Shown here: in pieces, positions 24,889 through 64,000 of the stretch | How positions within the stretch are numbered: position 1 is the stretch's first letter | Layout of the letters: every line of letters starts with the position of its first letter | Virus record (IMG/VR): IMGVR_UViG_3300002026_000124 | Span: 1 to 64,000 of that record | DNA: 64,000 nt | DNA from: a virus | Lineage: Duplodnaviria; Caudoviricetes | Reading direction: 5' to 3' (one strand) | The notes under the pieces: model-generated | What the model saw: the letters and a program-made list of their open reading frames with translations, nothing else | Told to the model about the DNA's origin: nothing | The model's database searches: none | Made by a program: the position numbers and the translations under genes

Positions 24889-24896
24889 CTTTTTTT

Positions 24897-24972: not shown

Positions 24973-24974
24973 CT

Positions 24975-25214: not shown

Positions 25215-25219
25215 CATAT

Positions 25220-25300
25220 TATCCTTTGGCAGAATGGTCATTGCATCGCCCTTTGAAGGCGACACCGAGAGGTTTGCAGGTTCGAGTCCTGCAGGGATAA
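25220..25300 (+). tRNA. tRNA-Gln(TTG) with long variable arm
   Basis: Stem tcgcc/ggcga, loop CTTTGAA, extra arm caccgagaggttt. Confidence 0.8.
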
Positions 25301-25417
25301 CAAAAAGTTTTTGGAAATCTTGTATTTATTATTATCTTTGCATAAATATTGCTGGTATAATAACACGTTGTTATAGAATAGTACACGATGCATACTATCG
25401 CCAACATTTTTTAATAT

Positions 25418-25490
25418 TGTCCTGTGGTGTAATTGGCAACACGTCTGGTTTTGGTCCAGAAGAGTTCAGGTTCGAGACCTGACGGGACAA
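25418..25490 (+). tRNA. tRNA-Gln(TTG)
   Basis: Stem tctgg/ccaga, loop TTTTGGT; internal promoter TTTG-N19-TATCTTTG at 25310-25340 upstream. Confidence 0.9.
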
Positions 25491-25503
25491 CAAATTTATT
25501 ATT

Positions 25504-25653
25504 ATGGGAAAATTAAGAGTTGGAAACAAGGAAAATTCTTTACTTAATGGTGAATGGGCAGGTCATGTTAGAAAAGATGGTAAGGAATGGACTGCAAGAA
25601 AACGCAGAAACCTTGACAAAGAAATAATTAAAAAGGAAAGCAATGAGTTATAA
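25504..25653 (+). CDS. Small basic hypothetical protein (49 aa)
   Basis: Hand-translated MGKLRVGNKENSLLNGEWAGHVRK...; overlaps the next start. Confidence 0.45.
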   Translation: MGKLRVGNKENSLLNGEWAGHVRKDGKEWTARKRRNLDKEIIKKESNEL

Positions 25654-26065
25654 TTTATTCTTAGATGACTACAGATTTCCAAAGGAAACTGTTGATTACA
25701 TGTTTATTCCAATCTACACTAGTGAAGAATGGATAATCGTCAGGAATTACTATGCCTTTATTACAATAATTCAAAAGAAAGGTCTTCCGGATATCATTTC
25801 TTTCGACCACGACCTTGCAGATGTTCATTATAAGAATCAGGTTTTCGATTATAATGATGAAACCCTGGAAAAAACCGGATATCATTGTGCAAAATGGCTC
25901 ATTGACTATTGTCTCGATAATAATTTAGAAGTTCCCACAAGAATATTAATACATTCAATGAATCCTTACGGGACACAGAATATCAAATCAGTTTTCGAAA
26001 CCTACTTCAAGGTTTATGGTAAAGAATATAGTCCAATTAGCATTACCCCAAGCATGCGTAGATAA
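25643..26065 (+). CDS. Cyclic-phosphate-processing receiver-like domain protein
   Basis: LFLDD.R.P, ISFDHDL, KTGY..AKWL and IHSMNP.G motifs. Confidence 0.65.
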   Translation: MSYNLFLDDYRFPKETVDYMFIPIYTSEEWIIVRNYYAFITIIQKKGLPDIISFDHDLADVHYKNQVFDYNDETLEKTGYHCAKWLIDYCLDNNLEVPTRILIHSMNPYGTQNIKSVFETYFKVYGKEYSPISITPSMRR

Positions 26066-27365: not shown

Positions 27366-27396
27366 TTTGTATTTATCAAAAATGTCTCTATCTTTG
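27366..27396 (+). promoter_or_regulatory. Bacteroidota sigma-A-type promoter of tRNA operon 2
   Basis: TTTG (27366-69), N19, TATCTTTG (27389-96). Confidence 0.8.
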
Positions 27397-27428
27397 CAGA
27401 GAATTTAATTAGTGAAAACAATAAAGTT

Positions 27429-27542
27429 ATGAAAAATTTACTCAACATATTATCAGTAGTCCTAGTGGATGCGCTCTTATGGGCAGCGGATGAGGATATG
27501 GTATATCGTGTCGGGTCGAAAGATACTGGAGTAGGTTATTAA
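27429..27542 (+). CDS. Attenuator leader peptide 2, MKNLLNILSVVLVDALLWAADEDMVYRVGSKDTGVGY
   Basis: Hand translation; 17 of residues 8-25 are L/V/D/A/W/E/M, matching the downstream tRNAs. Confidence 0.85.
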   Translation: MKNLLNILSVVLVDALLWAADEDMVYRVGSKDTGVGY

Positions 27543-27562
27543 TAACTGAAACAATAAAAACG

Positions 27563-27592
27563 AAACCCGACCCGAAAGAGTCGGGTTTTTTT
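27563..27592 (+). terminator. Attenuator terminator 2
   Basis: aaacccgac/gtcgggttt stem, GAAA loop, T-run; leader 27511-27518 is complementary to 27568-27575. Confidence 0.85.
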
Positions 27593-27618
27593 ATTGTTCT
27601 TTGACATGTTGGAAATTT

Positions 27619-27689
27619 GGTCTATTAGGGTATGGGTATCCTTGGTGGTTGTCGCCCACCAGAATCGAGTTCGAGTCTCGAATAGACCG
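27619..27689 (+). tRNA. tRNA-Asp(GTC)
   Basis: Stem ggtgg/ccacc, loop TTGTCGC, G73. Confidence 0.85.
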
Positions 27690-27838
27690 CTAAACATTTG
27701 ATTGTCGGGTTATTACTCAGAGGGTTTTAACTTACGAAGATAGACGTGTTAGTATAATAAGTACACTTGCCTTAAATAAGTAGGAAGTTGTAACATGAAA
27801 AGGTTATCACACGTAACAAGAACGTCAAATGTTTTTAA

Positions 27839-27910
27839 CGGGGTCGTAGTTTAATGGTTAGAATACCGCACTGTCTATGCGGGGAAGGGGTTCGAATCCC
27901 ACGGCTTCGG
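27839..27910 (+). tRNA. tRNA-Asp(GTC), weak T-stem
   Basis: Stem ccgca/tgcgg, loop CTGTCTA, G73; only 3 bp in the T-stem. Confidence 0.7.
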
Positions 27911-27924
27911 CAAAATTTAAATTT

Positions 27925-28044
27925 ATGAAAAAGAATAAGTCGTCCGAAAATACCGGACAGTTAAAATCAAAAGTTTGCTTTAAAGTAATTTCTAAAGAGG
28001 AATTAAAGAAAAACAGAAGTAATGCATATGATTACTTAATTTAA
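27925..28044 (+). CDS. Small basic ORF (39 aa)
   Basis: Hand translation MKKNKSSENTGQ...YDYLI. Confidence 0.35.
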   Translation: MKKNKSSENTGQLKSKVCFKVISKEELKKNRSNAYDYLI

Positions 28045-28167
28045 TCTACCGATAATCTACCGTTATAACAGTAAAAAGTGCAATATGTTGCACAATCTAC
28101 CGATAATCTACCGATAATCTACCGATAATTACCGTTATAACAGTAAAAAGTGCAATATGGTGCACAA
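28043..28167. repeat. Compound tandem repeat (11-mer aatctaccgat plus duplicated palindrome-containing unit)
   Basis: 11-mer repeated 1x then 3x; taccgttataacagtaaaaagtgcaatatgNtgcacaa present twice. Confidence 0.85.
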
Positions 28168-28171
28168 AAAC

Positions 28172-28255
28172 GCAGCATTATACAAGCGGTCAAAGTAGCA
28201 AGTCCTTCAAACTTGCATCTTCGGATTTCGAGGGGTTCGAATCCCCCATGCTGTA
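28172..28255 (+). tRNA. Class II-type tRNA, anticodon TTC (Glu) by geometry, C33
   Basis: Acceptor gcagcat/atgctgt, stem caagt/acttg, loop CCTTCAA, variable hairpin atc-ttcg-gat. Confidence 0.65.
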
Positions 28256-28306
28256 CCTTGACTTTTCTGTACCATAGGACTATTTATAATAAAATATTAT
28301 ACTCCT

Positions 28307-28951
28307 ATGGCACGAAAAGAAAAAAAATATCACTTTATTTATAAAACAATAAACATCATAAATAATAAGTTTTATATTGGTATGCATTCAACAGACAATT
28401 TGAATGATGGATATGTTGGTAGCGGAACAAGACTTTGGTATTCAATAAATAAATATGGTAGGGAAAATCATAGATTGGAAATACTTGAATTTCATGAAAC
28501 ACGAATTATATTAAAAGAACGTGAAAAGAATTTAGTAAATGAGGATTTATTGAAAAATCCTATGTGCATGAACATAAAGATTGGTGGTGAAGGTGGATTA
28601 AATGGTCTTTCACAAGAATCAATTAAAAAAATACGTAAGGGTGCATCTGATTTCATGAAAATGAAGTGGAATGAACCAGAATTTAGAAATATGTGTTCTC
28701 AACGTTCTATAATTAAAATGAAAGAAAATCATAGACTTGGTAAAATGAGATATGATACGTTTATTGGTAAATCTCATAGTGAAGAAACAAGAGAACTTAT
28801 GAAAGTAGTTCATAAGGGAATGGGTATTGGTTCTACAAATTCTCAATTCGGTACTTGTTGGATAACTAAGTGTGGCGTAAATAAAAAAATTAATAATAAT
28901 GATTTGTCCTTATATATTAGTGATGGTTGGTGTAAGGGTAGAGTCATATAA
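28307..28951 (+). mobile_element. Free-standing GIY-YIG homing endonuclease (Seg-like) in the tRNA array
   Basis: FIYKTIN...KFYIGMHST...Y.GSG; NUMOD3-like GKSHSEETR. Confidence 0.85.
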
Positions 28952-28952
28952 T

Positions 28953-29024
28953 GGTCCGTTCGTCTAACGGTTAGGACGGCAGGTTTTCATCCTGTTAATA
29001 GGGTTTCGATTACCCTACGGACTA
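28953..29024 (+). tRNA. tRNA-Glu(TTC)
   Basis: Stem gcagg/cctgt, loop TTTTCAT. Confidence 0.9.
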
Positions 29025-29031
29025 CTAAAAT

Positions 29032-29104
29032 TGCGTGTTGTGGAAGTTGGCTCTCCGGACAGAATCATAATCTGTAGACACTGGTTCAAATCCAGTACAC
29101 GCAA
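29032..29104 (+). tRNA. tRNA-CAT (Met or Ile2)
   Basis: Stem acaga/tctgt, loop ATCATAA. Confidence 0.8.
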
Positions 29105-29111
29105 CAATATT

Positions 29112-29186
29112 GCTCTCTTAACTCAGTTGGTTCAGAGTGTCACGCTTACAACGTGAAGGTCGGGGGTTCGACTCCCTCAGAGAGCA
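29112..29186 (+). tRNA. tRNA-Val(TAC)
   Basis: Stem tcacg/cgtga, loop CTTACAA. Confidence 0.92.
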
Positions 29187-29303
29187 CAAATGCCGTAAGT
29201 CTGGATAAAATTCCTTAAAGGGAAACTGGAGTAGCGAATAACTTAAAGCGAAGTGGTTTCGTGATAGACGGTTGTGATGAAAAGTTAGTCACTCATTAGT
29301 CGC

Positions 29304-29379
29304 AGGGTAGAATGGTGTAAGAATGGGAGCACGTTTGCGATAAGCAAAAAGACGAAAGGTTCGAATCCGAAATACCCCT
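29304..29379 (+). pseudogene. Degenerate tRNA-like sequence
   Basis: GGTTCGAATCC present but T-stem is 2 bp; anticodon loop lacks U33. Confidence 0.45.
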
Positions 29380-29383
29380 TAAT

Positions 29384-29458
29384 AGTCCCTTAGTTTAGTT
29401 GGTAAAAACGTCTGGCTTACATCCAGAAGATGCACTGGTTCGAATCCAGTAGGGACTA
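29384..29458 (+). tRNA. tRNA-Val(TAC)
   Basis: Stem tctgg/ccaga, loop CTTACAT. Confidence 0.9.
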
Positions 29459-29468
29459 CTTTTGACAT

Positions 29469-29534
29469 ACGGTTTAGGACCGTTATAGCTTCGGCTATAA
29501 AGGGGGTGGGATGTTCGCTACTGACCACCCCTTT
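29469..29534 (+). ncRNA. Compact three-hairpin element
   Basis: acggt/accgt, tatagc-UUCG-gctata and a 10-bp aagggggtgg/ccaccccttt stem. Confidence 0.45.
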
Positions 29535-29653
29535 ACAAAAAACGTTTAATTTTGCATAGTTATTCTTATTAATTTAAACTATCTGTGCAAATTTTATCGG
29601 TTGTAGAGGCGATAAGCATAGTTTATCGGTTGTAGAGACGATAAAATTTAAAT

Positions 29654-29735
29654 ACGGGTATAGTCCAACGGTAGGACGCTCTCTGTCCAAGGGGAGAAAT
29701 AGGCTGCAGTCAGGGTTCAATTCCCCTTACCCGTG
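29654..29735 (+). tRNA. tRNA-Asp(GTC)-like with aberrant anticodon arm and long variable region
   Basis: Acceptor acgggta/tacccgt, G73, D-stem gtcc/ggac, CTGTC present, loop irregular. Confidence 0.5.
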
Positions 29736-29795
29736 CAAAAAATAATTATTATCCTTGTATTATATATTAACTGCATATACTAAGATAATAAATAT

Positions 29796-29877
29796 CTCGC
29801 AGTGTCGTAATTGGTAGCCGGGACAGTCTAAGAAGCTGTTGCCTTCGGGTGTGTGGGTTCGAGTCCCACTTGCGAGA
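29796..29877 (+). tRNA. tRNA-Leu(AAG)
   Basis: Stem acagt/gctgt, loop CTAAGAA, long variable arm, A73. Confidence 0.8.
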
Positions 29878-29884
29878 CGAATAT

Positions 29885-29939
29885 GGGGATGTGATGAAAT
29901 TGGCGATACATGCCAGACTTAGAATCTGGCGCTAATAAA
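29885..29939 (+). pseudogene. 5' two-thirds of tRNA-Leu(TAG), truncated in the variable arm
   Basis: GGGGATG..D-arm..ccaga CTTAGAA tctgg, then no T-arm. Confidence 0.7.
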
Positions 29940-29952
29940 CTGGCTTCACTTT

Positions 29953-30029
29953 GGGGCAGTAGTGACAATTGGCTAACACGACAGATTTGCACTCTGTAAA
30001 TGGGGTATCATACATCCCCTGCTCCACCA
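29953..30029 (+). tRNA. tRNA-Ala(TGC) with non-canonical T-loop
   Basis: G3:U70, loop TTTGCAC, encoded CCA; T-loop ATCATAC. Confidence 0.75.
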
Positions 30030-30098
30030 CAACATTGGTTTCGAAAACCAACGTCTCCACTTTTCCAGAAAACCAAGTATTTATAATAAAGAAATATT

Positions 30099-30917
30099 GT
30101 GAATACTTGGAAAACTAATAGAAAAACAATTTTAATTAATTGTGAAAATTGTGGAAATGAATTCAAAAAAACATTATCTGAATATAATCGTTCAGAAAAA
30201 TTAAATAAAAAACATTTTTGTTCATTAAAATGTAATAATGAATCTAAAAAGATTAAACTAAAATTCTGTTTACAATGTAATGAAGAGTTTATTCCCGATA
30301 AAAATAAAACTAAGTTCTGTTCACATTCTTGTAACGCAAAATATAATAATAAAAATAGAAAGGGTATTAAATACAATATAAGTGAAAATGGTTTAATTGG
30401 ATTAAGGGAATCGTATAAAAATAATTTCGGATATGATATTATAAAATTTAGAAATAACTATTATCAATCACAGAATTATTGTAAAGAATGTAATGAACCT
30501 ATTCCATATGAAAAAAAGAATCATGTTTTTTGTAATCGGGATTGTAAAAGAACATATGATAGAAAGAATTTAACTGAATATCAAAAATACTATAAAGATT
30601 GTCAATTTAAATTTGGTTTATCAGACTATCCAAATGAATTTGATTTCGAATTGATTAAAACACATGGTTGGTATCAACCAAAAAATCATGGCAATAACTT
30701 AGGTGGAATTAGTAGAGACCATATGATTTCAGTAAAATATGGATATGAAAATAATATTAGTTCTGAGATAATTAGTCATCCTGCCAATTGTCAATTGATG
30801 ATTCATAATGAGAATATTAGTAAATATAAGAATTGTTCAATAACATTAGAAGAACTAATGATTAAAATTGATAATTGGAATGAAAAATATTCACAAATAA
30901 CAATGGGTTTAACATAG
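30099..30917 (+). mobile_element. Zn-finger/HNH-type homing endonuclease
   Basis: Repeated CxxC...FCS..C modules and C-terminal RDHMISV...HPANC...H..N..K. Confidence 0.75.
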
Positions 30918-30981
30918 TGGCGAGTGTTAACCGTAAGTCCTGCGTGGCTGGTAACGGTGGTTCGATTCCATCAGCCTGTTG
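30901..30981 (+). ncRNA. Non-canonical tRNA-like RNA
   Basis: Intact T-arm ggtgg-TTCGATT-ccatc, 7-bp D-like stem, 8-bp acceptor-like stem, no standard anticodon loop. Confidence 0.4.
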
Positions 30982-30986
30982 TTTAT

Positions 30987-31059
30987 GCCCTGTTGACGTA
31001 ATTGGCAACCGTATTGGTCTTAAAAGCCAAGTTTCTCAGTTCGAATCTGAGGCGGGGTA
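30987..31059 (+). tRNA. tRNA-Leu(TAA) with short (4-nt) variable loop
   Basis: Stem ttggt/gccaa, loop CTTAAAA, A73. Confidence 0.8.
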
Positions 31060-31095
31060 CTATTTAAAAATTTTATAGTATTTATGATAAAAACT

Positions 31096-31416
31096 ATGGA
31101 TACAAAACAAAAATTATTCGAGATGATGGGTAAACTAAATCATGATTTTAAACAATCAAAAATTGTTGAAGGGTTTGAAAATAGTAATAATCCAATTAAT
31201 TCCGAACAATTAACCCAAAAGGATGTGGCATCTAAAATTAGAAATCGAGGATATCAATATCACACAGATACTACACTTAAAACAATTGGTGTAAATGCTA
31301 TTATAGATGAAATGAAACCCAGAGATTTACAATATTTTTTGGATTTAGGGTTTGTACGTGAACCATTAGGTGATTTAGGTTCAGAATATGATTCATTAAA
31401 TTATCATTACATATAA
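31096..31416 (+). CDS. Hypothetical protein with LFE-type N-terminal motif
   Basis: MDTKQKLFEMMGKLNHDF; start at 31096, after GTATTTAT at 31078. Confidence 0.6.
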   Translation: MDTKQKLFEMMGKLNHDFKQSKIVEGFENSNNPINSEQLTQKDVASKIRNRGYQYHTDTTLKTIGVNAIIDEMKPRDLQYFLDLGFVREPLGDLGSEYDSLNYHYI

Positions 31417-31420
31417 ATCT

Positions 31421-31936
31421 ATGGACTACCATTTGAGTTTATTTATCATGTCGATTCTTGTATTTGTTTCCTATGTCGGAGCAGTATGGATTAAATTCGG
31501 TGTACAGCCATCAATAAGTGCAAGTTATGATTGTTGGAAAGGCTTATGGCAATCACTTTTCGTATTATTCTGTTGGGGATTTGCATTTCCTGCAATGGTT
31601 ATTGGTATAGAAGTAACGCCATTAATGTTTTTTGCTTGTGCTGGAATTATGTTTGTAGGTGCCGCATATGAAATAAAAATTAAATGGGTATATGAATATC
31701 ATATGGTATTTGCAATATCCGGAATTATATTTAGCCAGTTAGCAATTTACTTTGGTTATGATTTACTATGGGTTAACATAGTATCGGTTGTATTATCAGT
31801 ATTAATATTATTAGGTAAATTGTATCTTGGTTTAAAGAATCACTTCTGGTGGATAGAGTTAGTTGCCTTTGCTGCAATAGTTTATGCAATGGGAACTAAG
31901 ATTATTCCTTTCTTATATCTAACAACACTTAATTAA
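31421..31936 (+). CDS. Polytopic membrane protein
   Basis: About five hydrophobic segments. Confidence 0.65.
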   Translation: MDYHLSLFIMSILVFVSYVGAVWIKFGVQPSISASYDCWKGLWQSLFVLFCWGFAFPAMVIGIEVTPLMFFACAGIMFVGAAYEIKIKWVYEYHMVFAISGIIFSQLAIYFGYDLLWVNIVSVVLSVLILLGKLYLGLKNHFWWIELVAFAAIVYAMGTKIIPFLYLTTLN

Positions 31937-31939
31937 AAT

Positions 31940-32022
31940 TCGTTCGTGGTAGAGTGGTCGATTACATTGGTCTCCAAAACCAATAGAGAAATCTCACGTG
32001 GGTTCGAATCCTACCGAACGAG
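31940..32022 (+). tRNA. tRNA-Trp(CCA) with long variable arm
   Basis: Stem ttggt/accaa, loop CTCCAAA, G73, extra arm gag-aaat-ctc. Confidence 0.85.
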
Positions 32023-32231
32023 CATAAATAATGGTAAAAATTGCGGGTACGTACACAAGTCAAAGTTCTTTCCAACGGAACACCGACTACTACTGAGGGT
32101 AGAGATATTCCCAAGAGCAATATCAGTTAGTGTATGACCATTATTTTATAATTTTTTATAAAATTTCCAAAAATCTTTAAATTTTTATTATTTTTTATTT
32201 TTCAGATAGTATTTATCTGAAAAGTATAACT

Positions 32232-42732: not shown

Positions 42733-42821
42733 GGCGGGGTGGTGGAATTGGTAGACACGCTGGACTTAAAATCCAGTGGGCAGTAATGCCCGTGTGGGTT
42801 CGAGTCCCATCCCCGCTACCA
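42733..42821 (+). tRNA. tRNA-Leu(TAA)
   Basis: Canonical class II, loop CTTAAAA, encoded CCA. Confidence 0.95.
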
Positions 42822-42836
42822 AAAATTAGAAAAATT

Positions 42837-43109
42837 ATGGCGAAATTAAAAGTGCCTGTGGATGTACTGTATGAAAAATGCAGGAAAGTCATTAATCATG
42901 AAATCCGAATTGAATCTCGTGAAGAAGCAAGAGAAATTATGCTACTTACTACAGAGAAGCATCGTAATGATTTCGTCAAATATCACCAACAGGACATGGG
43001 TAATATTTGTTGCATGGTTCTTGATGCAGCAAAGCAAGACTTGGTGAAAGAAGGAAAATTAGTTCTGAAACCCGAAGATAGTTTCGGACACCCATTAACA
43101 TTTGAATAA
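42837..43109 (+). CDS. Hypothetical protein
   Basis: Start moved to ATG 42837, downstream of the tRNA. Confidence 0.5.
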   Translation: MAKLKVPVDVLYEKCRKVINHEIRIESREEAREIMLLTTEKHRNDFVKYHQQDMGNICCMVLDAAKQDLVKEGKLVLKPEDSFGHPLTFE

Positions 43110-43149
43110 TATGGCAATAATTTATTAAAAAAACTGTAAAGAAAAGACT

Positions 43150-43332
43150 ATGATAGATATTAAAGCGGGTGAAGGTTTATGCGAATATATTCGAAGGGCA
43201 AATGGTATGAAAAAAGAAATATCGCAATTAAGTGACATACCAAAAATTGTAAATAGTGATAAAATTACAATTACTGGTGGTGCTGAATTTATTGGGAAAT
43301 TTTTGAATGCGTTACCGGAAGAATATAAATAA
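43150..43332 (+). CDS. Small hypothetical protein
   Basis: 60-aa ORF. Confidence 0.4.
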   Translation: MIDIKAGEGLCEYIRRANGMKKEISQLSDIPKIVNSDKITITGGAEFIGKFLNALPEEYK

Positions 43333-43339
43333 TTTTAAA

Positions 43340-43422
43340 GTCCTTGTGATGAAATTGGTAGCACGTGATAGTTTCAAAAACTATTGCCTTCGGGCGTGAG
43401 GGTTCGAGTCCCTCCAAGGACA
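43340..43422 (+). tRNA. tRNA-Leu(CAA)
   Basis: Stem atagt/actat, loop TTCAAAA, long variable arm. Confidence 0.88.
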
Positions 43423-43446
43423 CTAATTTAATTAAAATTTAAAACG

Positions 43447-43496
43447 ATGAAAGAAAAATTTAAAGTCTTGTAGGTTGCTCTAATGCGACTACAAGA
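43447..43496 (+). promoter_or_regulatory. uORF MKEKFKVL* with hairpin covering the next initiation region
   Basis: ATG 43447 to TAG 43473; 12-bp stem 43466-43496 ends 2 nt before ATG 43499. Confidence 0.5.
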
Positions 43497-43498
43497 AA

Positions 43499-43819
43499 AT
43501 GAGAGTAAAAACTATTTCAAAGACCACTACTAATCGTGGTGTATTCAATCGTGCGTATAAAGAACTTCTTGAACGCAAAGGTAGAATCCATTGTTCACGT
43601 TGCAAATACCATAAAGGTGAAAACTATGAAGGTAAATGGTATGGAGAATATATTTATGACGATATGAATACCTGTCGTGGTAAATCAGGAACTCATACAA
43701 AGTTACCAAATTGGAAACTTGTTTCAAAACAACCAAAACAATGGATGAAAAAACCCATCAAATTTGTTGATAAACAATATGGTGGGTACAGGTACATTTA
43801 CGTTGACATCAAATGGTGA
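43499..43819 (+). CDS. Small very basic protein with CxxC
   Basis: K/R-rich 106 aa. Confidence 0.55.
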   Translation: MRVKTISKTTTNRGVFNRAYKELLERKGRIHCSRCKYHKGENYEGKWYGEYIYDDMNTCRGKSGTHTKLPNWKLVSKQPKQWMKKPIKFVDKQYGGYRYIYVDIKW

Positions 43820-43830
43820 TGTCAACACAT

Positions 43831-43902
43831 TGCGAGTTAGCTTAGTGGTAAAGCATCACCTTCATAAAGTGGAGACCGAGGGTTCGAGTCCCTCACTCGC
43901 AA
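43831..43902 (+). tRNA. tRNA-CAT (Met or Ile2)
   Basis: Acceptor tgcgagt/actcgca, loop TTCATAA, one stem mismatch. Confidence 0.8.
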
Positions 43903-43945
43903 CAAAAAACCCATCGAATTCGATGGGTTTAGATTTCCAATATGT

Positions 43946-45936: not shown

Positions 45937-46506
45937 TTGTACTTCAAAATGATTTATATGGAAGTATTAAAGAAACCACTAGTTATTAATTTGTTTGCTG
46001 GACCTGGAACAGGAAAATCAACAACAGCTGCACAAATATTTTCAGAATTAAAATGGCAAGGTTATAGCTGCGAACTTGTTATGGAATTTGCTAAAGAAAA
46101 AGTTTGGGAAGAAAGTTTTAAAGTGCTTGATGACCAAATATATATTTTCGGAAAACAAGTTCACAAAATGCGTAGGCTTGTTGGTAAGGTAGATATAATC
46201 ATTACTGATTCCCCGCTATTATTCTCATTAGTTTACGATAGTACAAAGAATGAGAATTTTAAAAACTTAGTTCTGGATGTTAATAATGAATTCGAAAACC
46301 TGAATGTTTTTCTTATAAGACAAAAAAAATATGTTGAGGCTGGAAGGATGCAAACTGAGGAAGGTGCAATAGCATTAGATACCCAAATTAAGAATATGCT
46401 AATGAATGAAAACCAAACATATTGGGCAGTGAATGCGACACATGAGGTAATTCGTGAAGAACTTCTTCCAATTGTTATTGGAAAATACGAAAATCTAATT
46501 AAATAA
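45937..46506 (+). CDS. P-loop NTPase/kinase (NadR/AAA_28-like)
   Basis: [13 protein letters not shown] and IITDSPL motifs. Confidence 0.75.
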
Positions 46507-47752: not shown

Positions 47753-48850
47753 TTGCACATGAACTCATTTTTAGAAAAAGTCGATTGGAATGTATTAAAT
47801 ACATATATCGACAATAGCTTAATTATCTCAAACAAGCATCCAGAATATGATATTTGGATTCTTAATTATTCGCCAAAGGTTCAGTCTAAGAAATTTTGGG
47901 ATGAATATACTTTGTCATGCCGTGGACTCGTTATTGATGCCGAAGGCAATATCTTAGCACGACCATTTCAAAAATTCAAGAACTATGAAGAATATGACCC
48001 ATCAGAATTCGATTGGTCTCAGGACTTCGATGTGTTTGAAAAAATGGATGGCTCATTAATTATCTTATTTTACTACGAACCACGTATGGAATGGATAATT
48101 GCGTCAAGGGGTTCTTTCGCATCTGAACAAGCGATTGAAGGAAGAAAAATGATTGAGTCTAATACATATAATCATTTAGACGTTAAAGAAACATATTTGT
48201 TCGAAATTCTGTATCCAGAAAATCGCATTGTTGTCGATTACGGTAATAGAAGAGAATTAGTATTATTAGGTAGAGTTAACACTTTAGATGGTTTTGAATT
48301 ATATTATGACGATTTAGTTTCAATGCATTCAAAATATTTTACCGTTGTAAAGAAATTTAATATTAAGTCTTTCGTTGAATTAAGAGAATTGATAACTAAG
48401 GGTGAAGAAAACAAAGAAGGATTTGTAATTAGGTTTTACAGTGGTTTAAGAATTAAGATGAAATTTGCTGAATATGTTAGACTACACGGAATCATAACAA
48501 ATGTCTCAAATCTAGTTGTTTGGGAACATTTGAGAGACAAATATGAATTTGATGAATTGCTTGATAGAGTACCTGACGAGTTTTATCAGTGGCTTAATAA
48601 AACAGTAGCAACATTAAATAATGAATTCTACAATATTGAGAGATTGGCGTTGAAGGAATTTATTAGGATTTATTATAATGACGACACTGTTATTCGTAAA
48701 GATTTTGCAATGGAAGCACAAAAAAGTGCTTATCGTTCAATTTTATTTAAAATTTACGATAAAAATAGTTACGATGAAATCATATGGAATATGATAAGAC
48801 CTGAATATAGTAAACCATTTAAGGATGGTTATGTAGATGAAACTTTATGA
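47753..48850 (+). CDS. RNA ligase, T4 Rnl1 family
   Basis: CRGL...ARPF.KF.N, EKMDGS (motif I), FEI..PENRIVV, EGFV and K.K motifs. Confidence 0.88.
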   Translation: MHMNSFLEKVDWNVLNTYIDNSLIISNKHPEYDIWILNYSPKVQSKKFWDEYTLSCRGLVIDAEGNILARPFQKFKNYEEYDPSEFDWSQDFDVFEKMDGSLIILFYYEPRMEWIIASRGSFASEQAIEGRKMIESNTYNHLDVKETYLFEILYPENRIVVDYGNRRELVLLGRVNTLDGFELYYDDLVSMHSKYFTVVKKFNIKSFVELRELITKGEENKEGFVIRFYSGLRIKMKFAEYVRLHGIITNVSNLVVWEHLRDKYEFDELLDRVPDEFYQWLNKTVATLNNEFYNIERLALKEFIRIYYNDDTVIRKDFAMEAQKSAYRSILFKIYDKNSYDEIIWNMIRPEYSKPFKDGYVDETL

Positions 48851-50015: not shown

Positions 50016-51632
50016 ATGATACAAAAAACAAACACAGTTGCAAGTTGCACGTACACCTCTTCAGGTGACTATTCTACTTACACGAAAAACAAAGCGTTCG
50101 ATGGCAATTCTACTACTTATTGGGTCTCATTAAGTACCACTTCACCTAAAACTATTGGGATAACATTCCCATCAGTAAAGAAAATGGAATACTATGGAAT
50201 AAAAATTAAGGACACTGCAAATTATTCTATTGAAGAAAATGCACCAGTATCGTGGACATTACAAGTATTGGAAGGTGGTTCATGGTATACAATACACGAA
50301 GTAGTTGATTATTCAGGATTCGTGAGCAATGTAGAATCATTATTCCCAATTCCTGCTTTATCTACGCATAAAAATTATCAATTAGTAATCACCAAACAAA
50401 AGGGTTTAAGTAATCAAGTTATGATAACTGAAATTATTCTTTATGCTGATATGGATAAAATTGATACAAGTATTAATGCCGTTTATTCTTCAAGCGGGGA
50501 TTTTAGTGCAATATATAAAAAAGATTATGTTTTTGACAACTTTGTAACCCAAAATCAATGGGTATCTAGTTCATCTAGCACAAAATGGATACAGGTTGAT
50601 TTAACTAAAGGAGTATTTCCTACAACGCTTGGTTATAGAGTAACTCGTTATGGAATTCTCCCAGGGAATGTTATTGAATATTTAGACCGTGCTCCAAAAT
50701 CTTGGATATTGGAAGGTTATGTTGGTGGTGCTTGGGTTAAACTTGATGAAGTTACTGGATTTGATTCAGAAGATTTTGCAGATGATACTGAAGAACAATT
50801 TATAGTTGGTAATCCTAAGTTTGCAACTAAATATAGATTAACCATTACAGAAACTAACGGTGCTCCTGTAGTAAGTTTAAGAGCATTTACATTATATGAA
50901 CAACCAAATTTTGGCAATTTAGTTGGCGTTGGTAATGCAATTGTTAGTGGAATACCAAAACCTTTAATTTGTTGGATGCCAGAAACTCAACTTACATATA
51001 CAACATTACAGGTAATTAGAAAAGTATATAGTAATGAAACAGTTATTGCTACATTCCCTTATGCAGATAGAATGAAAGTTAAATCCTTTATTGACTCAAC
51101 ATATACCAATAATGGTCAAACATATCCTGCTACGTATTGGATTAAATTACTTGGATGCTCTGATGGACAAACACATGAAAGTATTCGTATTGAACCAAGC
51201 AGAATTGTTTCAACACCTACGTTCAATGGTACTGATTATATTTATACAGTTAGTTCTCCAATTCTTTATTCAATTGGTGGTATTGAAATACATAATAGAT
51301 TTAATAATGTTCAAAGTGTTACACTTATAAGTGGTTCAACAACGATGAATTCATCTGGGTCAACACAAATTTATGGAAGTACTACCGTAAAAACTTCAAA
51401 TGATAAGAAATCTTCATCAACAAGTACTGTTAGCTCAAAATCAAACATACCTGTAGATAAGTTAGCTGCGAGTACACATAATACTTCAAGGTCGAATAGA
51501 CAATCCACTACTGTTAGTACACATAATACTTCAAGGTCGAATAGACAGTCAACTACTGTTAGTTCAAGCCATGCTCCAAGAGGTCCTTATGTACACAGTC
51601 TCTCAAACTTAGAAGATAATAGATTAGAATAA
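50016..51632 (+). CDS. Tandem discoidin (F5/8 type C) carbohydrate-binding protein with Ser/Thr-rich tail
   Basis: Two AFDG/VFD...W...I...Y.I...P.SW.L repeats; GTATTTAT at 49985. Confidence 0.7.
   Translation: MIQKTNTVASCTYTSSGDYSTYTKNKAFDGNSTTYWVSLSTTSPKTIGITFPSVKKMEYYGIKIKDTANYSIEENAPVSWTLQVLEGGSWYTIHEVVDYSGFVSNVESLFPIPALSTHKNYQLVITKQKGLSNQVMITEIILYADMDKIDTSINAVYSSSGDFSAIYKKDYVFDNFVTQNQWVSSSSSTKWIQVDLTKGVFPTTLGYRVTRYGILPGNVIEYLDRAPKSWILEGYVGGAWVKLDEVTGFDSEDFADDTEEQFIVGNPKFATKYRLTITETNGAPVVSLRAFTLYEQPNFGNLVGVGNAIVSGIPKPLICWMPETQLTYTTLQVIRKVYSNETVIATFPYADRMKVKSFIDSTYTNNGQTYPATYWIKLLGCSDGQTHESIRIEPSRIVSTPTFNGTDYIYTVSSPILYSIGGIEIHNRFNNVQSVTLISGSTTMNSSGSTQIYGSTTVKTSNDKKSSSTSTVSSKSNIPVDKLAASTHNTSRSNRQSTTVSTHNTSRSNRQSTTVSSSHAPRGPYVHSLSNLEDNRLE
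51471..51560 (+). repeat. 45-nt in-frame tandem duplication (STHNTSRSNRQSTTV x2)
   Basis: Two copies with 2 synonymous differences. Confidence 0.9.
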
Positions 51633-51703
51633 ACTAAGTTAATTAAATAAAATGGGAAGCATGCTTCCCATTTTTTATTTAATTAAAAATAATTACAAGT
51701 TTT

Positions 51704-51746
51704 TGTAACATTTACTTGTTTTATTCGTATTTATGTCTTTACTTTG
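51704..51746 (+). promoter_or_regulatory. Promoter region of tRNA operon 3
   Basis: TGTAACA-N15-CGTAT variant (51704-30) and near-consensus CTTG-N20-TTACTTTG (51715-46). Confidence 0.55.
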
Positions 51747-51782
51747 CACTCAGAAATCAAAACATATTAAAAAATTAAAGCA

Positions 51783-51875
51783 ATGAAAATTTTTGGCACA
51801 TATTATTACGGTAAAAAATCTTATAAGAAACATCTTACGAGAATCGGGAATGTTATGTCCAAAAAGCAAAAATAA
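51783..51875 (+). CDS. Attenuator leader peptide 3, MKIFGTYYYGKKSYKKHLTRIGNVMSKKQK
   Basis: Hand translation; YYYGKKSYKK run matches the downstream Lys/Tyr tRNAs. Confidence 0.85.
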   Translation: MKIFGTYYYGKKSYKKHLTRIGNVMSKKQK

Positions 51876-51902
51876 GCAATGATTTTTGCATAAAGCACAG
51901 AG

Positions 51903-51930
51903 ACCCGATTCGAAAGATTCGGGTTTTTTT
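51903..51930 (+). terminator. Attenuator terminator 3
   Basis: acccgattc-GAAA-gattcgggt plus T-run; leader 51841-48 is complementary to 51904-11. Confidence 0.85.
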
Positions 51931-51937
51931 GTTTTTA

Positions 51938-52011
51938 GACCTCTTAGCTCAATTGGTAGATGCACCACCCTTTTAAGGTGGGGGTTCTGGGTTCAAGTCC
52001 CAGAGGGGTCA
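51938..52011 (+). tRNA. tRNA-Lys(TTT)
   Basis: Stem ccacc/ggtgg, loop CTTTTAA. Confidence 0.92.
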
Positions 52012-52016
52012 CAAAT

Positions 52017-52106
52017 GAGAGTACGGCAACGAGTGGTGTTGCGCAGAGGCGCATAATCTCTGTCCCAGTGGGGTGAACATAGGTGGTTCGAATCCATCTG
52101 CTCTCA
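52017..52106 (+). tRNA. Non-canonical tRNA-CAT (G33, 6-bp anticodon stem, long variable arm)
   Basis: Acceptor gagagta/tgctctc, loop CGCATAA. Confidence 0.55.
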
Positions 52107-52111
52107 CAAAT

Positions 52112-52192
52112 GCCAGTATTGAACAGGTGGTGAGTTTAAGACTCTGTAAAAGTCTCGCTTCGGCTGTGTAGGTTCGATTCCTGCTGCTGGCA
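52112..52192 (+). tRNA. tRNA-Tyr(GTA)
   Basis: Stem agact/agtct, loop CTGTAAA, variable arm. Confidence 0.88.
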
Positions 52193-52246
52193 CTTACGGT
52201 AGAGTTTAGGCAATTTCTGTACCCAACGTAACTGAAATATCCATAC

Positions 52247-52317
52247 GCACCCGTAGCAAAGGGGATATGCCTCTGGCTTTTAACCAGATGACACAGGTTC
52301 GATTCCTGTCGGGTGCA
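52247..52317 (+). tRNA. tRNA-Lys(TTT)
   Basis: Stem tctgg/ccaga, loop CTTTTAA. Confidence 0.88.
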
Positions 52318-52372
52318 CTTTTAGGGTTTTTTACTACTTTTTAAGTCCAATGTCCCAATAAAAAGTAGACAA

Positions 52373-52457
52373 GTATTCGTAGCAAAGTGGTTATGCTCCT
52401 GCCTTTTAAGCAGAGTGTCTAAACAACACAACGTGGGTTCGATTCCCACCGAATACA
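52373..52457 (+). tRNA. tRNA-Lys(TTT) with long variable arm
   Basis: Loop CTTTTAA, extra arm gtgt...acac. Confidence 0.8.
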
Positions 52458-52462
52458 CAAAT

Positions 52463-52545
52463 GGACAGGTGGGTGAGTGGTTAAAACCGCCAGACTGTAA
52501 ATCTGGTAGCTTCGGCTTTCGGGGGTTCGAATCCCTCCCTGTCCA
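52463..52545 (+). tRNA. tRNA-Tyr(GTA)
   Basis: Canonical; ccaga CTGTAAA tctgg. Confidence 0.95.
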
Positions 52546-52552
52546 CAAATAT

Positions 52553-52795
52553 ATGATTATGGAAACACTAAAAGAAATTGTGAATGGAACTATGGCTAAA
52601 CTAAGCCATATATGCAATGGTAAAGCGTATTATAGAATTGATAATGAGAATCATTCTTATCAACTTGAAATTAATTGCAATGATGCTGAATGGAAAGATG
52701 TGTATATCTATCCTGAAATCAAAGCAATTACATTAATGAGGTGGATACGCAAGGGTATTGAAAAACAGGATGACACATTCATCGTGTTGAAATAG
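52553..52795 (+). CDS. Hypothetical protein
   Basis: Start moved downstream of tRNA-Tyr. Confidence 0.55.
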   Translation: MIMETLKEIVNGTMAKLSHICNGKAYYRIDNENHSYQLEINCNDAEWKDVYIYPEIKAITLMRWIRKGIEKQDDTFIVLK

Positions 52796-52801
52796 GCTCA
52801 A

Positions 52802-52873
52802 GCACTCGTGGCAGAATGGCGATGCTACTCCCTCTTAAGGAGACCAATAGGGGTTCGATTCCCTTCGGGTGCA
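52802..52873 (+). tRNA. tRNA-Lys(CTT)
   Basis: Loop CTCTTAA, acceptor gcactcg/cgggtgc. Confidence 0.85.
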
Positions 52874-52878
52874 CAATT

Positions 52879-53385
52879 TTATTCTACAAAGTCTTCGTAA
52901 TACCGAATCAATTGGTTCTCGGTTTCAAAGTACCTGATTTTATCATTATCTGGTGTATAATTAACCATTTCTCTGCCTTTAATTACTAATCCATCATATC
53001 CTAATCTTAACATTTCATCATTAACATTTGTGTTTGTATCAAAATCTCTTTTCGCATCAAAATAATCGTCAATTCCCTTTTCTCTACCATAATTCATCGC
53101 AAGTCGTTGTATAAACATTTCAGCATCATTCAAAGTATTAACAATTTTTGGATGTTTCGGTATTGCTCCGACAACAAAATATACTTTACCATACTTTCTT
53201 GCTAATCCACGATTACTTAATGCTGCGGTATATAGACCCTGACCAAATGAAGCCATTCCATTATTTTCTTTACCTAATTCTTGGACACCTCTAATAGTTA
53301 CATTTTGTCTTTTCCACCTGAGATATTCAGATTGATTAAAATTATTGATTTCCTCATTAATAATTTTAGCGATATTATCATTCAT
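52879..53385 (-). CDS. Hypothetical protein with I-x-EE-I N-terminal motif
   Basis: MNDNIAKIINEEINNF; FGQGLYT...A..YG and GYDG.V motifs reminiscent of ART-like folds. Confidence 0.55.
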   Translation of the reverse strand: MNDNIAKIINEEINNFNQSEYLRWKRQNVTIRGVQELGKENNGMASFGQGLYTAALSNRGLARKYGKVYFVVGAIPKHPKIVNTLNDAEMFIQRLAMNYGREKGIDDYFDAKRDFDTNTNVNDEMLRLGYDGLVIKGREMVNYTPDNDKIRYFETENQLIRYYEDFVE

Positions 53386-62116: not shown

Positions 62117-62147
62117 TTTGCAGATATTGAAACTTTATTTACCTTTG
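62117..62147 (+). promoter_or_regulatory. Bacteroidota sigma-A-type promoter of tRNA operon 4
   Basis: TTTG (62117-20), N19, TACCTTTG (62140-47). Confidence 0.8.
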
Positions 62148-62189
62148 CGGAGTATTTAGTTTTATACAAGACATAAAATTTATAAAATA

Positions 62190-62318
62190 ATGAAATCACA
62201 AGTATCCAATATTAACATTTCGTCAACGATTAATAGTCGTAATGGAGAAAGTATATTCTGTTCAAGTTTTACAGGCAGAAATATAGCGGATACGGGTTCA
62301 GGATTTTTATCGTGTTGA
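62190..62318 (+). CDS. Attenuator leader peptide 4, MKSQVSNINISSTINSRNGESIFCSSFTGRNIADTGSGFLSC
   Basis: Hand translation; S10 I5 T3 C2 match the downstream tRNAs; remainder is rich in N/G/F/R. Confidence 0.82.
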   Translation: MKSQVSNINISSTINSRNGESIFCSSFTGRNIADTGSGFLSC

Positions 62319-62342
62319 AATAAACACAAAAAAATTAAAAAG

Positions 62343-62372
62343 AACCCGAATTCGCAAGATTCGGGTTTTTTT
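62343..62372 (+). terminator. Attenuator terminator 4
   Basis: aacccgaat/attcgggtt, GCAA loop, T-run; leader 62293-99 is complementary to 62342-48. Confidence 0.85.
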
Positions 62373-62388
62373 ATGTTCTTTTTATACT

Positions 62389-62459
62389 GTCGGGATAATT
62401 TAGTGGTAGAATGCTTGTTTGGTATTCAAGCAACACCAGTTCGATTCTGGTTCTCGGCT
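62389..62459 (+). tRNA. tRNA-Thr(GGT)
   Basis: Loop TTGGTAT, acceptor gtcggga/tctcggc. Confidence 0.85.
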
Positions 62460-62463
62460 CAAA

Positions 62464-62513
62464 ATATAACTCTTACGGGTTATAAATACAAAATATAACC
62501 TCTACAGGTTATA
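62464..62513 (+). repeat. Tandem duplicated small hairpin (tataac-N8-gttata x2)
   Basis: Two diverged copies between tRNA-Thr and tRNA-Cys. Confidence 0.6.
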
Positions 62514-62547
62514 CTCCGTAAGATGTTCATTGACATGCTGGTTTTAT

Positions 62548-62622
62548 GCACGGATGGTCGAGTGGTCAAAGGCAACGCTCTGCAAAAGCGTACAATCGTG
62601 GGTTCGAATCCCACTCCGTGCT
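62548..62622 (+). tRNA. tRNA-Cys(GCA)
   Basis: Stem acgct/agcgt, loop CTGCAAA, U73. Confidence 0.93.
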
Positions 62623-62669
62623 CTGGGTCGTTTTCGTACTTTCTCAGTATTTATCTGAAAGTACAAATT

Positions 62670-63332
62670 ATGGCAAGAAAAGAAAAACAATATCATTTCA
62701 TTTATAAGACAACTAATAAGTTGAATGGTAAATATTATTACGGAATGCATTCCACAAATAATTTAAATGATGGATATTATGGTTCAGGAAAAAGATTGAG
62801 ACGTTCTTTGAATAAATATGGTAAAGAAAATCATGTTGTTGAATATCTTGAATTTCTACCCGATAGAAAATCGCTAATTGAACGTGAAAAAGAAATTGTT
62901 AATTTAAATGAAATTGCGAAAGAAGATTGTATGAATCTAATGGTTGGTGGAAAAGGTGGTTTTATTTCAGAACAGGCATTGAAGGGAAGATATGCTGCAG
63001 ATAAAATTTTGATTGAAAAATATGGTGAGAATTGGCGAAGAGTTATTTTTAGAAAATATTTTGATGGTTTAAGTGATGAAGAAAAAGAATTAATTTATCA
63101 GAAAATGAAAAAAACTAATGAAATAAATGGATATGACTATAAAGGTTTTTTAGGAAAAAAACATTTACCTGAAACCATAGAAAAAATGAAAAAAAGTAAG
63201 AATGTTGGGATAAATAATTCACAATTTGATACTTGCTGGATTTATTCTGATGAATATAGTAAACCACAAAAAATTAAAAAATTTCAATTAAATGAATTTA
63301 TTAATCGTGGTTGGCGAAAGGGAAGAAAATAA
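62670..63332 (+). mobile_element. Free-standing GIY-YIG homing endonuclease, paralog of 28307..28951
   Basis: MARKEKQYHFIYKTTN...YYYGMHST; start moved to ATG 62670. Confidence 0.85.
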
Positions 63333-63335
63333 TAC

Positions 63336-63416
63336 TGTGACGTGGATGAATGGTTTAGTCACCACGCTGATACCGTGGGTCGCAAGACAACGTGGGTTCG
63401 AGTCCCACCGTCACAA
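63336..63416 (+). tRNA. tRNA-Ile(GAT) with long variable arm
   Basis: Stem ccacg/cgtgg, loop CTGATAC, extra arm gtc-gcaa-gac. Confidence 0.82.
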
Positions 63417-63448
63417 CAAAGCAATCAAAATTTTAATCATTCACTAAT

Positions 63449-63533
63449 GGAAGAGTGTCCGAGTGGTTTATGGTGGCAGTCTTGAAAACTGCTGGATGTA
63501 AAAGTCCCGTGGGTTCGAATCCTACCTCTTCCG
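63449..63533 (+). tRNA. tRNA-Ser(TGA)
   Basis: Canonical class II, loop CTTGAAA, G73. Confidence 0.95.
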
Positions 63534-63572
63534 CACTATTTAATTGGAAATTGGGTAGAATATTTAAAAAAA

Positions 63573-63657
63573 GGAGGGGGGACAGGATGGTAATGTGCCT
63601 GTTTGCTAAACAGAGGCTGGGATAATACCCAAGAGTGGTCGGTACACTCTCTCTCCG
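63573..63657 (+). tRNA. tRNA-Ser(GCT) with non-canonical T-loop
   Basis: Loop TTGCTAA, G73, T-loop GTCGGTA. Confidence 0.75.
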
Positions 63658-63662
63658 CAAAA

Positions 63663-64000
63663 AAGGTTAGTAATCCAGAAGCCTAACCAGCCGAAGGGTG
63701 AAGTTTCCTTAATGAAATTGATACAAACAAGCACCTGTGGTGGGATTGCAATGTGTTGATAAATTAGTTAAAAACTCATTTCGACTTTAATATTGGAACA
63801 TGAAGATTTATGGTGCACCTTATCTTCTGGAAGGTTCGAAACCTTTGGAGTCGGCTAGAATCACATGCAGTGGATATCATCATGTGGTTTGTGCACCAAA
63901 AAAGAAGTCATGACTCTTTGAGGTGTAAAAGTTCTGGGATGCATAAGAGGCTGACCTAATGTTCTGTTGGAATTTGAGTGTTAGTAGATTTATTTACACG
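63663..64000 (+). ncRNA. Candidate large structured RNA, truncated by the window end
   Basis: No credible ORF; multiple nested stems. Confidence 0.4.

Follow-up and report, generated by a model that had tools for sequence, protein, structure and literature searches.

A putative ribosome-mediated attenuator upstream of the lysine and tyrosine tRNA genes of a jumbo phage

The first 64,000 nucleotides (nt) of the 72,175-nt IMG/VR record IMGVR_UViG_3300002026_000124, hereafter the window, derive from a virus of the Caudoviricetes; the record, whose completeness is put at 21%, is thus a fragment of a jumbo phage. At positions 51,704 to 52,873, a short open reading frame (ORF) rich in lysine (Lys) and tyrosine (Tyr) codons is followed by an intrinsic terminator and by six tRNA genes for the same two amino acids. 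We found that this arrangement is, with good probability, a transcription attenuator in which a ribosome translating a leader peptide gates the phage Lys/Tyr tRNA operon. The elements of this unit are the following:

51649..51674, no strand assigned: bidirectional terminator hairpin with an 11-bp stem and T-runs on both sides, closing the upstream gene 50016-51632
51715..51746, + strand: weak promoter of the Bacteroidota type (CTTG, a 20-nt spacer and TTACTTTG), recognized by eye and by homology in the alignment
51783..51875, + strand: leader ORF of 30 codons plus stop, with its start codon in an unpaired A-rich stretch
51790..51865, + strand: predicted anti-antiterminator helix A, 51790-51812 (codons 3-10) pairing with 51843-51865; minimum free energy (MFE) z = -6.3
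51801..51830, + strand: sensor codons 7-16, YYYGKKSYKK (4 Tyr and 4 Lys), conserved in relatives
51841..51848, + strand: region 2, the antiterminator strand GAATCGGG, within codons 20-22 and invariant in 22 of 22 relatives
51866..51889, + strand: intervening hairpin with the leader stop codon (51873-75), enclosed by the antiterminator once this has formed
51904..51930, + strand: intrinsic terminator composed of CCCGATTC (region 3, 51904-11), the loop GAAA, GATTCGGG (51916-23) and a run of seven T (T7, 51924-30)
51938..52012, + strand: tRNA-Lys(UUU) no. 1 (ARAGORN, Rfam), starting 8 nt past the T-run
52112..52193, + strand: tRNA-Tyr(GUA) no. 1 (ARAGORN, Rfam)
52247..52318, + strand: tRNA-Lys(UUU) no. 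2 (ARAGORN, Rfam)
52373..52458, + strand: tRNA-Lys(UUU) no. 3, 86 nt in length; its variable region contains an insert of about 14-19 nt
52463..52546, + strand: tRNA-Tyr(GUA) no. 2 (ARAGORN, Rfam)
52802..52874, + strand: tRNA-Lys(CUU), the final gene of the unit (ARAGORN, Rfam)

An earlier reading of this DNA (the original prediction) had proposed a leader with eight Lys (AAA and AAG) and four Tyr codons at 51783-51875, a perfect pairing of 51841-48 with 51904-11, and a downstream set of three Lys(TTT), one Lys(CTT) and two Tyr(GTA) tRNAs. The leader is present at those coordinates, with Lys at codons 2, 11, 12, 15, 16, 27, 28 and 30 (6 AAA, 2 AAG) and Tyr at codons 7, 8, 9 and 14 (3 TAT, 1 TAC); GAATCGGG was verified as the exact 8-bp complement of CCCGATTC; and the tRNA set was borne out by ARAGORN and Rfam, the latter scoring the six genes at 46-65 bits. 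The contig encodes no further Lys or Tyr tRNA, and the run YYYGKKSYKK lies 5' of this set, to which its codons correspond; 22 distinct relatives preserve the association. Among the 403 ATG-initiated ORFs of 20-60 codons found in the six frames of the contig, no other reached at least 8 K or Y residues in a 10-residue window, and when at least 3 Y were also demanded, the leader core was the single hit among the 78,638 stop-free 10-residue windows of the 72-kb contig. Over the whole peptide, K and Y make up 12 of 29 residues, whereas their background frequency in the proteome is 0.126 (binomial 1e-4). The match between leader and tRNAs is not a product of chance. Conservation of Lys and Tyr in relatives was limited to core codons 7-16, the tail Lys codons 27, 28 and 30 not being conserved, and the Lys/Tyr fraction of the entire peptide separated own from foreign tRNA sets weakly (0.33 vs 0.25), an effect of the overlap between the large Ser/Thr/Ile set and residues outside the sensor; the 10-residue window serves better as a statistic.

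Between the leader and the first regulated gene stands the intrinsic terminator (51904-51923 followed by T7), whose stem has one T-T mismatch, in the 3' arm GATTCGGG. On its + strand, the full 72-kb contig contains a single copy of the antiterminator strand GAATCGGG. Since tRNA-Lys no. 1 starts 8 nt past the T-run, there is no space for a promoter of its own. The sequence further suggests a self-contained transcription unit, because the bidirectional terminator at 51649-51674 would insulate it against upstream transcription and the gene that follows the last tRNA (52879-53385) is convergent. Upstream of the tRNAs, the unit has its own promoter, assigned by homology, and a short ORF predicted to be translated. 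At the homologous promoter position, relatives carry the full TTTG ... TAnnTTTG, and strain variants in the DNA runs X1 and X4 have a T at 51715 that restores TTTG. Promoters of this type (TTTG, 18-20 nt, TAnnTTTG) numbered 8 versus 2.7 expected, and 3 of the 8, all full-consensus, lie directly 5' of the leader ORFs of three sibling units in the same phage. By position, the Lys/Tyr unit is unit 3, and its siblings are:

24371-25491: unit 1, with promoter, MK-leader, antiterminator strand, terminator and Pro/His/Gln tRNAs
27366-32023: unit 2, with the same layout as unit 1 and Asp/Glu/Met/Val/Ala/Leu/Trp tRNAs
62117-64000, continuing to contig position 70375: unit 4, with the same layout and Thr/Cys/Ile/Ser/Asn/Phe/Gly/Arg tRNAs

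The leader of unit 1 (24431-24505) has the core QPQPQQHP and is followed by 3 Pro, 2 His and 3 Gln tRNAs. In unit 2 the leader core (27429-27542) contains Val, Leu, Asp, Ala, Trp, Glu and Met, and the tRNAs are those for Asp, Glu, Met, Val, Leu and Trp plus an Ala(UGC) tRNA (29953-30026) that ARAGORN had missed. The leader of unit 4 (62190-62318) consists to 83% of Ser, Thr, Ile, Asn, Cys, Phe, Gly and Arg; Thr, Cys, Ile and Ser tRNAs follow within the window, and the others implied by the leader (Asn, Phe, Gly and four Arg) were found past the window edge, on the contig, so that a genomic signature in which leader composition predicts the downstream tRNA set had foretold them correctly. Enrichment of the amino acids of the own tRNAs relative to the phage proteome gave binomial values of 2.5e-4, 2e-3, 1e-4 and 7e-7 for leaders 1-4, and each of the four is unique or nearly so among the 403 small ORFs. 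Together, the four units cover all 20 amino acids, the siblings taking the 18 besides Lys and Tyr. The antiterminator pairs differ among families, being GAATGGG/CCCATTC in unit 1, TCGGGTCG/CGACCCGA in unit 2 and CGGGTTC/GAACCCG in unit 4, and in all four units the leader stop codon sits in a small hairpin enclosed by the antiterminator. Helix A is absent from units 1, 2 and 4.

The same architecture recurred outside this phage. Searching with the terminator motif returned 30 viral loci, about 24 of which presented a leader ORF, then a terminator, then tRNAs, in the same four leader families. A back-translated YGKKSYKK pattern, independent of the terminator motif and imposing no constraint on RNA structure, retrieved 20 viral stretches, and all 20 had the leader, the CCCGATTC terminator and Lys/Tyr tRNAs. 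When that pattern was run against 596 Gb of bacterial and archaeal genomes, 33 matches were obtained, 32 of them with neither GAATCGGG nor a nearby tRNA. The 33rd was leader-like, with a Lys/Tyr leader and tRNAs (L063, JBAZIW010000001.1, 362,763 nt), and is filed as a Candidatus Paceibacterota metagenome-assembled genome (MAG), into which a jumbo phage contig was probably mis-binned. Since the viral matches of this pattern are all leader units and the cellular ones, apart from that contig, are unrelated, the Lys/Tyr leader is confined to a clade of large phages, whose contigs reach 365 kb. Lys and Tyr tRNAs are placed apart, in a small operon of their own, in about 25 viral contigs.

We then compared 22 distinct Lys/Tyr leaders in an alignment and, at the level of units, 36 units of the four leader families. 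The ATG, GAATCGGG and CCCGATTC were invariant in 22/22 relatives, and the leader frame was open in all 22 and in 36/36 units. The 3' arm of the terminator was variable (GATT, GAGT, GTTT, GAAT, GAT-), and a fixed 5' arm together with a variable 3' arm is what would be expected if the former has two partners and the latter one. Indels in the sensor were of 3 nt (L005, L024, L029). Two relatives (L017, L026) have a 1-nt deletion just 5' of GAATCGGG, which alters the tail peptide by a frame shift, so that the retained nucleotides read Glu-Ser-Gly instead of Arg/Gly-Ile-Gly. Because this deletion shifts the frame over region 2 yet keeps its nucleotides, what is selected is translation as such together with the RNA, and not the peptide product. 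Lys codons 15 and 16 showed AAG/AAA swaps, and in 3 sequences a G-to-A change in codon 15 was compensated by a C-to-T change in the paired Leu/Phe codon.

Given no hint, RNAalifold recovered the antiterminator, with its pairs intact in 22/22, and the inner hairpin (51819-51842) that helix A encloses. The structure of the termination state (helix A, inner hairpin, stop-codon hairpin and terminator) was 83.5% paired, against 38-51% in slid controls, and 13 of its pairs had changed on both sides. Five of these lie in helix A, which was 86.8% paired in the alignment; the inner hairpin reached 91.8%, with G-C to A-U compensation in 3 sequences. The stop-codon hairpin region aligned poorly owing to indels (56% paired); the hairpin itself could be folded in every relative, at -4 to -10 kcal/mol in single-sequence folds with no shuffle control. 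Across families, 36/36 units had 7-12 nt in the leader tail that were perfectly complementary to the 5' arm of their own terminator, with sequences that differ among families and a chance rate of about 0.03-0.04 per unit. Pairing of regions 2 and 3 is therefore supported by invariance within the Lys/Tyr family and by the comparison between families.

The effect of ribosome position was modelled by constrained folding of a nascent RNA ending just past region 3, in which the 28 nt around each A-site codon in turn were kept single-stranded. In the free RNA of the window copy, the antiterminator had a probability of 0.01-0.13, region 2 being predicted to be sequestered by helix A. With the ribosome on codons 1-16, helix A was opened and the antiterminator probability rose to 0.8-1.0, whereas on codons 17-27 region 2 was masked and the probability fell to about 0. 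The same profile along the leader was obtained for the window copy and for 22/22 relatives, and in units 1, 2 and 4 the antiterminator formed except when a ribosome sat over region 2, close to the ORF's end. In silico, the antiterminator is thus both exclusive of the terminator and dependent on ribosome position. The original prediction had read the unit as an attenuator with GAATCGGG as antiterminator strand, and folding, alignment and pattern searches, all computational, lent it support.

Leader translation, ribosome stalling, their timing and read-through would be expected to combine as follows. Transcription would start at the Bacteroidota-type promoter near 51715-51746 and a ribosome would load on the 30-codon leader. 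When charged Lys and Tyr tRNAs are ample, it would pass codons 7-16 and reach region 2 while the polymerase makes the terminator; region 2 would then be masked or, after ribosome release, re-sequestered by helix A, and the CCCGATTC/GATTCGGG hairpin with T7 would form and end transcription 8 nt before the first tRNA. When Tyr or Lys decoding is slow, the ribosome would stall on YYYGKKSYKK, helix A would remain open and region 2 free, and GAATCGGG would pair with the freshly made CCCGATTC, so that no terminator forms and the six tRNA genes are transcribed. Such a loop would amount to a negative-feedback control of supply, because its products are the very tRNAs being sensed. The distance from a ribosome masking region 2 to a polymerase at the T-run is 65-95 nt, a spacing that resembles that of the trp leader.

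Several observations weigh against this reading. Helix A is dominant in the window copy and prevails over the antiterminator in the free RNA of only about 8 of the 22 relatives. In equilibrium folding with the complete terminator, the terminator won at every ribosome position, and because equilibrium always favours termination, the models imply that the decision must be kinetic, as in trp, a setting in which equilibrium folds carry no information. Folding also allowed the antiterminator again when the ribosome stood on the last three codons or the stop, so termination without stalling would have to depend on timing, on the bulk of the ribosome in the loop or on refolding of helix A; we infer that a ribosome at the stop-codon hairpin, inside the antiterminator loop, would block the antiterminator sterically. 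Within the Lys/Tyr family, regions 2 and 3 show no compensatory change, and they do not co-vary because neither changes; covariation does appear between families. The window's own promoter copy deviates from consensus and was not flagged by a sigma-70 promoter scan, and a simple terminator scan did not list the hairpin 51904-51923, in this case because of its T-T mismatch; more generally, Bacteroidota promoters and mismatched stems fall outside the scope of such scans. Comparison of the unit with cultured phages by megablast and blastn yielded no relative. As for expression, one contig from an oligo-dT RNA library (run X19, depth 3.2) spans the leader tail, the terminator and tRNA-Lys no. 1 and is identical to 51852-52015 except for one T fewer in the T-run; elsewhere in the 1.35-kb stretch these contig-level data gave no other high-identity coverage, and the contigs of RNA run X20 had nothing on the leader. 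The X19 contig hints weakly at a read-through precursor, and DNA carry-over could also account for it.

Regarding purpose, the simplest is that the design works as a general sensor of tRNA supply, since between them the four units, built alike, account for all 20 amino acids; whatever slows Lys/Tyr decoding would set it off. Defence sensing is a possible by-product of such feedback. The original prediction had named tRNA-Lys as the target of PrrC and PARIS and tRNA-Tyr as that of some retron effectors, and the literature agrees (PMC11464382, PMC11555353): tRNA-Lys is degraded by the AriB protein of PARIS, and infection is rescued by the tRNA-Lys that T5 itself encodes (PMC11464382), while PMC11555353 describes degradation of tRNA-Tyr by PtuAB of retron-Eco7 and a phage tRNA-Lys that counters PrrC170. 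An attenuator of the present type would react to such damage automatically. The suggestion in the original prediction that the unit may detect such defences is plausible, but the analysis gave it no further support. It is conceivable, if on balance unlikely, that the phage splits the code over four attenuator-gated tRNA operons for demand-driven supply and additionally uses the Lys/Tyr operon as an anticodon-nuclease alarm, switching on divergent and possibly resistant isodecoders beside RNA-repair enzymes.

A Lys/Tyr unit that is primarily an inducible counter-defence, sensing loss of tRNA-Lys or tRNA-Tyr to nucleases of PrrC-like, PARIS-like or retron type and supplying phage tRNAs that may resist cleavage, seems to us distinctly improbable. 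It would fit the fact that Lys and Tyr are documented targets of PARIS, PrrC170 and retron-Eco7 and that phage tRNAs rescue infection (PMC11464382, PMC11555353, PMC10264068), as well as the separate Lys/Tyr operon of the 25 or so viral contigs. Weak circumstantial support comes from a T4 Rnl1-type RNA ligase (47753-48850) and a protein with a cyclic-phosphate RNA-repair domain (25643-26065), and from the strong divergence of the three Lys(UUU) isodecoders, in which nearly all stems differ, including the acceptor and anticodon stems. However, the three siblings, built alike, gate the tRNAs for the remaining 18 amino acids, which shows that the design is not specific for defence; the switch cannot distinguish nuclease damage from any other shortage; and the known nucleases all belong to enterobacterial (E. 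coli) systems, whereas the host here is probably a member of the Bacteroidota.

We consider it very improbable that the leader is an RNA-only switch, with the RNA binding a tRNA in the manner of a T-box, a protein or a small molecule, and with an incidental ORF. The RNA is structured (z = -6.3), and nucleotide conservation of the sensor exceeds that of the amino acids, third codon positions being mostly fixed. Nevertheless, a search of 51600-52950 against Rfam at E <= 1 placed only the six tRNAs at gathering score and detected on the leader no family, neither the Trp, His, Leu, Thr or Phe leaders nor the T-box (RF00230). Moreover, the ATG does not vary, all 36 units preserve an open frame and sensor indels keep to 3 nt; the sensor sequences of the four families have nothing in common, and still every family encodes the amino acids of the tRNAs that it precedes, and leaders of the Ser/Thr/Ile family keep their composition despite sequence divergence. 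An RNA-only model is disfavoured because it predicts neither frame conservation nor the matching of leader and tRNAs.

There is next to no likelihood that the leader is an independent micro-gene followed by a constitutive terminator, with tRNAs expressed from other promoters or by leak-through and a composition match that reflects coincidence or AT richness. Lys codons are indeed common at 33% GC, and block 1 contains an extra promoter (25310-25340), but the core window is unique among 78,638, 4 of 4 units match their own tRNAs, and only 8 nt lie between the T-run and tRNA-Lys no. 1. In the pattern search, furthermore, 20/20 viral matches came with Lys/Tyr tRNAs whereas 32/33 cellular ones came without tRNAs, the last being the mis-binned phage contig, and the frame-shifted tail of two relatives indicates that there is no conserved protein product. 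Just as hard to credit is a nascent-peptide arrest of the SecM/TnaC kind, in which FGTYYYGKKSYKK would stall the ribosome through the exit tunnel whatever the tRNA supply: the N-terminal 16 residues are strongly conserved in the Lys/Tyr family, but the peptides of the other three units are unrelated, with the match to the own tRNA set as their sole common property, and a terminator would be pointless under constitutive arrest.

Some further features of the tRNA clusters were recorded. Between tRNA-Lys no. 1 and tRNA-Tyr no. 1, the + strand contains a tRNA-shaped element (52016-52108) with a 7-bp acceptor stem, the T-loop GGTTCGAATCC, a 6-bp D stem, a 7-bp anticodon stem with the loop CGCATAA and a long variable arm; it was not called by ARAGORN, nor by Rfam at E <= 1, and could be a degenerate or unusual tRNA. 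An ORF of 80 codons (52553-52795, +) without Pfam family lies inside the Lys/Tyr cluster and is an optional insert, since it is missing from related DNA contigs of run X4, in which 52802 follows immediately on 52546. Several tRNAs of the phage are over-long, among them the 86-nt tRNA-Lys no. 3 and a tRNA-Pro of 95 nt (24650-24744). The promoter within block 1 (25310-25340, +) is of full Bacteroidota-type consensus and stands just 5' of the last tRNA-Gln (25418), which may for that reason escape attenuator 1. Leu(UAA), Leu(CAA) and Met(CAU) tRNAs at 42733-43903 (+) lie outside the four gated blocks, with no matching leader seen before them; two relatives (L010, L024) have a phage tmRNA gene near the corresponding Leu/Leu/Met neighbourhood, and the window has none. 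In block 4, an ORF between tRNA-Cys and tRNA-Ile (62523-63332, +) has a weak match to GIY-YIG nucleases (E 3.6e-4, below the Pfam cut-off) and may encode a homing endonuclease within the tRNA array.

The window has a GC content of 32.8% and 47 tRNA genes with Rfam support, every one on the + strand, and its proteins include a large terminase, a portal, tail-fibre proteins and a ribonucleotide reductase. Near the tRNA islands are RNA-repair-type genes for the T4 Rnl1-family RNA ligase (PF09511, 3e-20; 47753-48850), for an AAA_28 kinase-like protein (45937-46506) and for the protein at 25643-26065, which has a cREC_REC cyclic-phosphate processing receiver domain (PF20274, 5e-21). An encoded SprB-repeat protein indicates the same host phylum as the promoters, namely the Bacteroidota. 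Among cultured phages, the nearest terminase is that of a Flavobacterium phage (28% identity), and the sole match in the nucleotide search with the unit, 52 nt of a Mycoplasma phage, was rejected as AT-rich noise. DNA nearly identical to the window is present in microbial-mat metagenomes.

The role of phage tRNAs has been debated for decades between codon compensation and evasion of defence (PMC10264068). The architecture described here implies that the speed of decoding would be measured per codon class and each tRNA block made only on demand; if true, this would be a rare homeostatic loop run by a virus on the translation machinery of its host, and the unit would offer a compact natural sensor of codon-specific decoding.

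Among known systems, the closest in form are the multivalent attenuators of enterobacteria, thrL (Thr/Ile) and ilvL (Ile/Val/Leu), to which trpL, hisL and pheL may be added. The Lys/Tyr unit shares with the thrL/ilvL type a promoter, a short ORF with a run of codons for several amino acids, an intrinsic terminator and an antiterminator strand whose pairing depends on ribosome position; in the window copy, an anti-antiterminator is predicted as well. It differs in having Bacteroidota-type promoters, no Shine-Dalgarno sequence and no Rfam leader match, in placing region 2 eight codons before the stop instead of next to it, and in regulating phage-encoded tRNAs rather than biosynthetic enzymes. 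The E. coli pheST attenuator, with its pheM leader, controls a translation component by the charged level of the cognate tRNA and is thus likewise a case of leader-peptide attenuation of the translation apparatus; there, however, the regulated product is a synthetase, a single amino acid is sensed and the locus is chromosomal, whereas in the phage the tRNAs themselves are regulated. The T-box of Firmicutes (RF00230) is also a terminator/antiterminator switch that reads tRNA status for translation-supply genes, but it binds uncharged tRNA directly and needs no translation, while the Lys/Tyr unit has a conserved ORF and no T-box match. With the tRNA region of T5, considered against PARIS, retron-Eco7 and PrrC, it has in common phage Lys and Tyr tRNAs able to replace those of the host; T5, according to PMC11555353, overexpresses its tRNA-Tyr from a strong promoter, whereas expression of the Lys/Tyr unit is apparently conditional on slow decoding. 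In full-text literature searches, no description of tRNA genes under attenuation control came up, whether for phages or for other systems. We know of no earlier case of leader-peptide attenuation controlling tRNA genes, and while the mechanism is a known one, the class of regulated gene, the biological setting and the unusual partition of the whole code are new.

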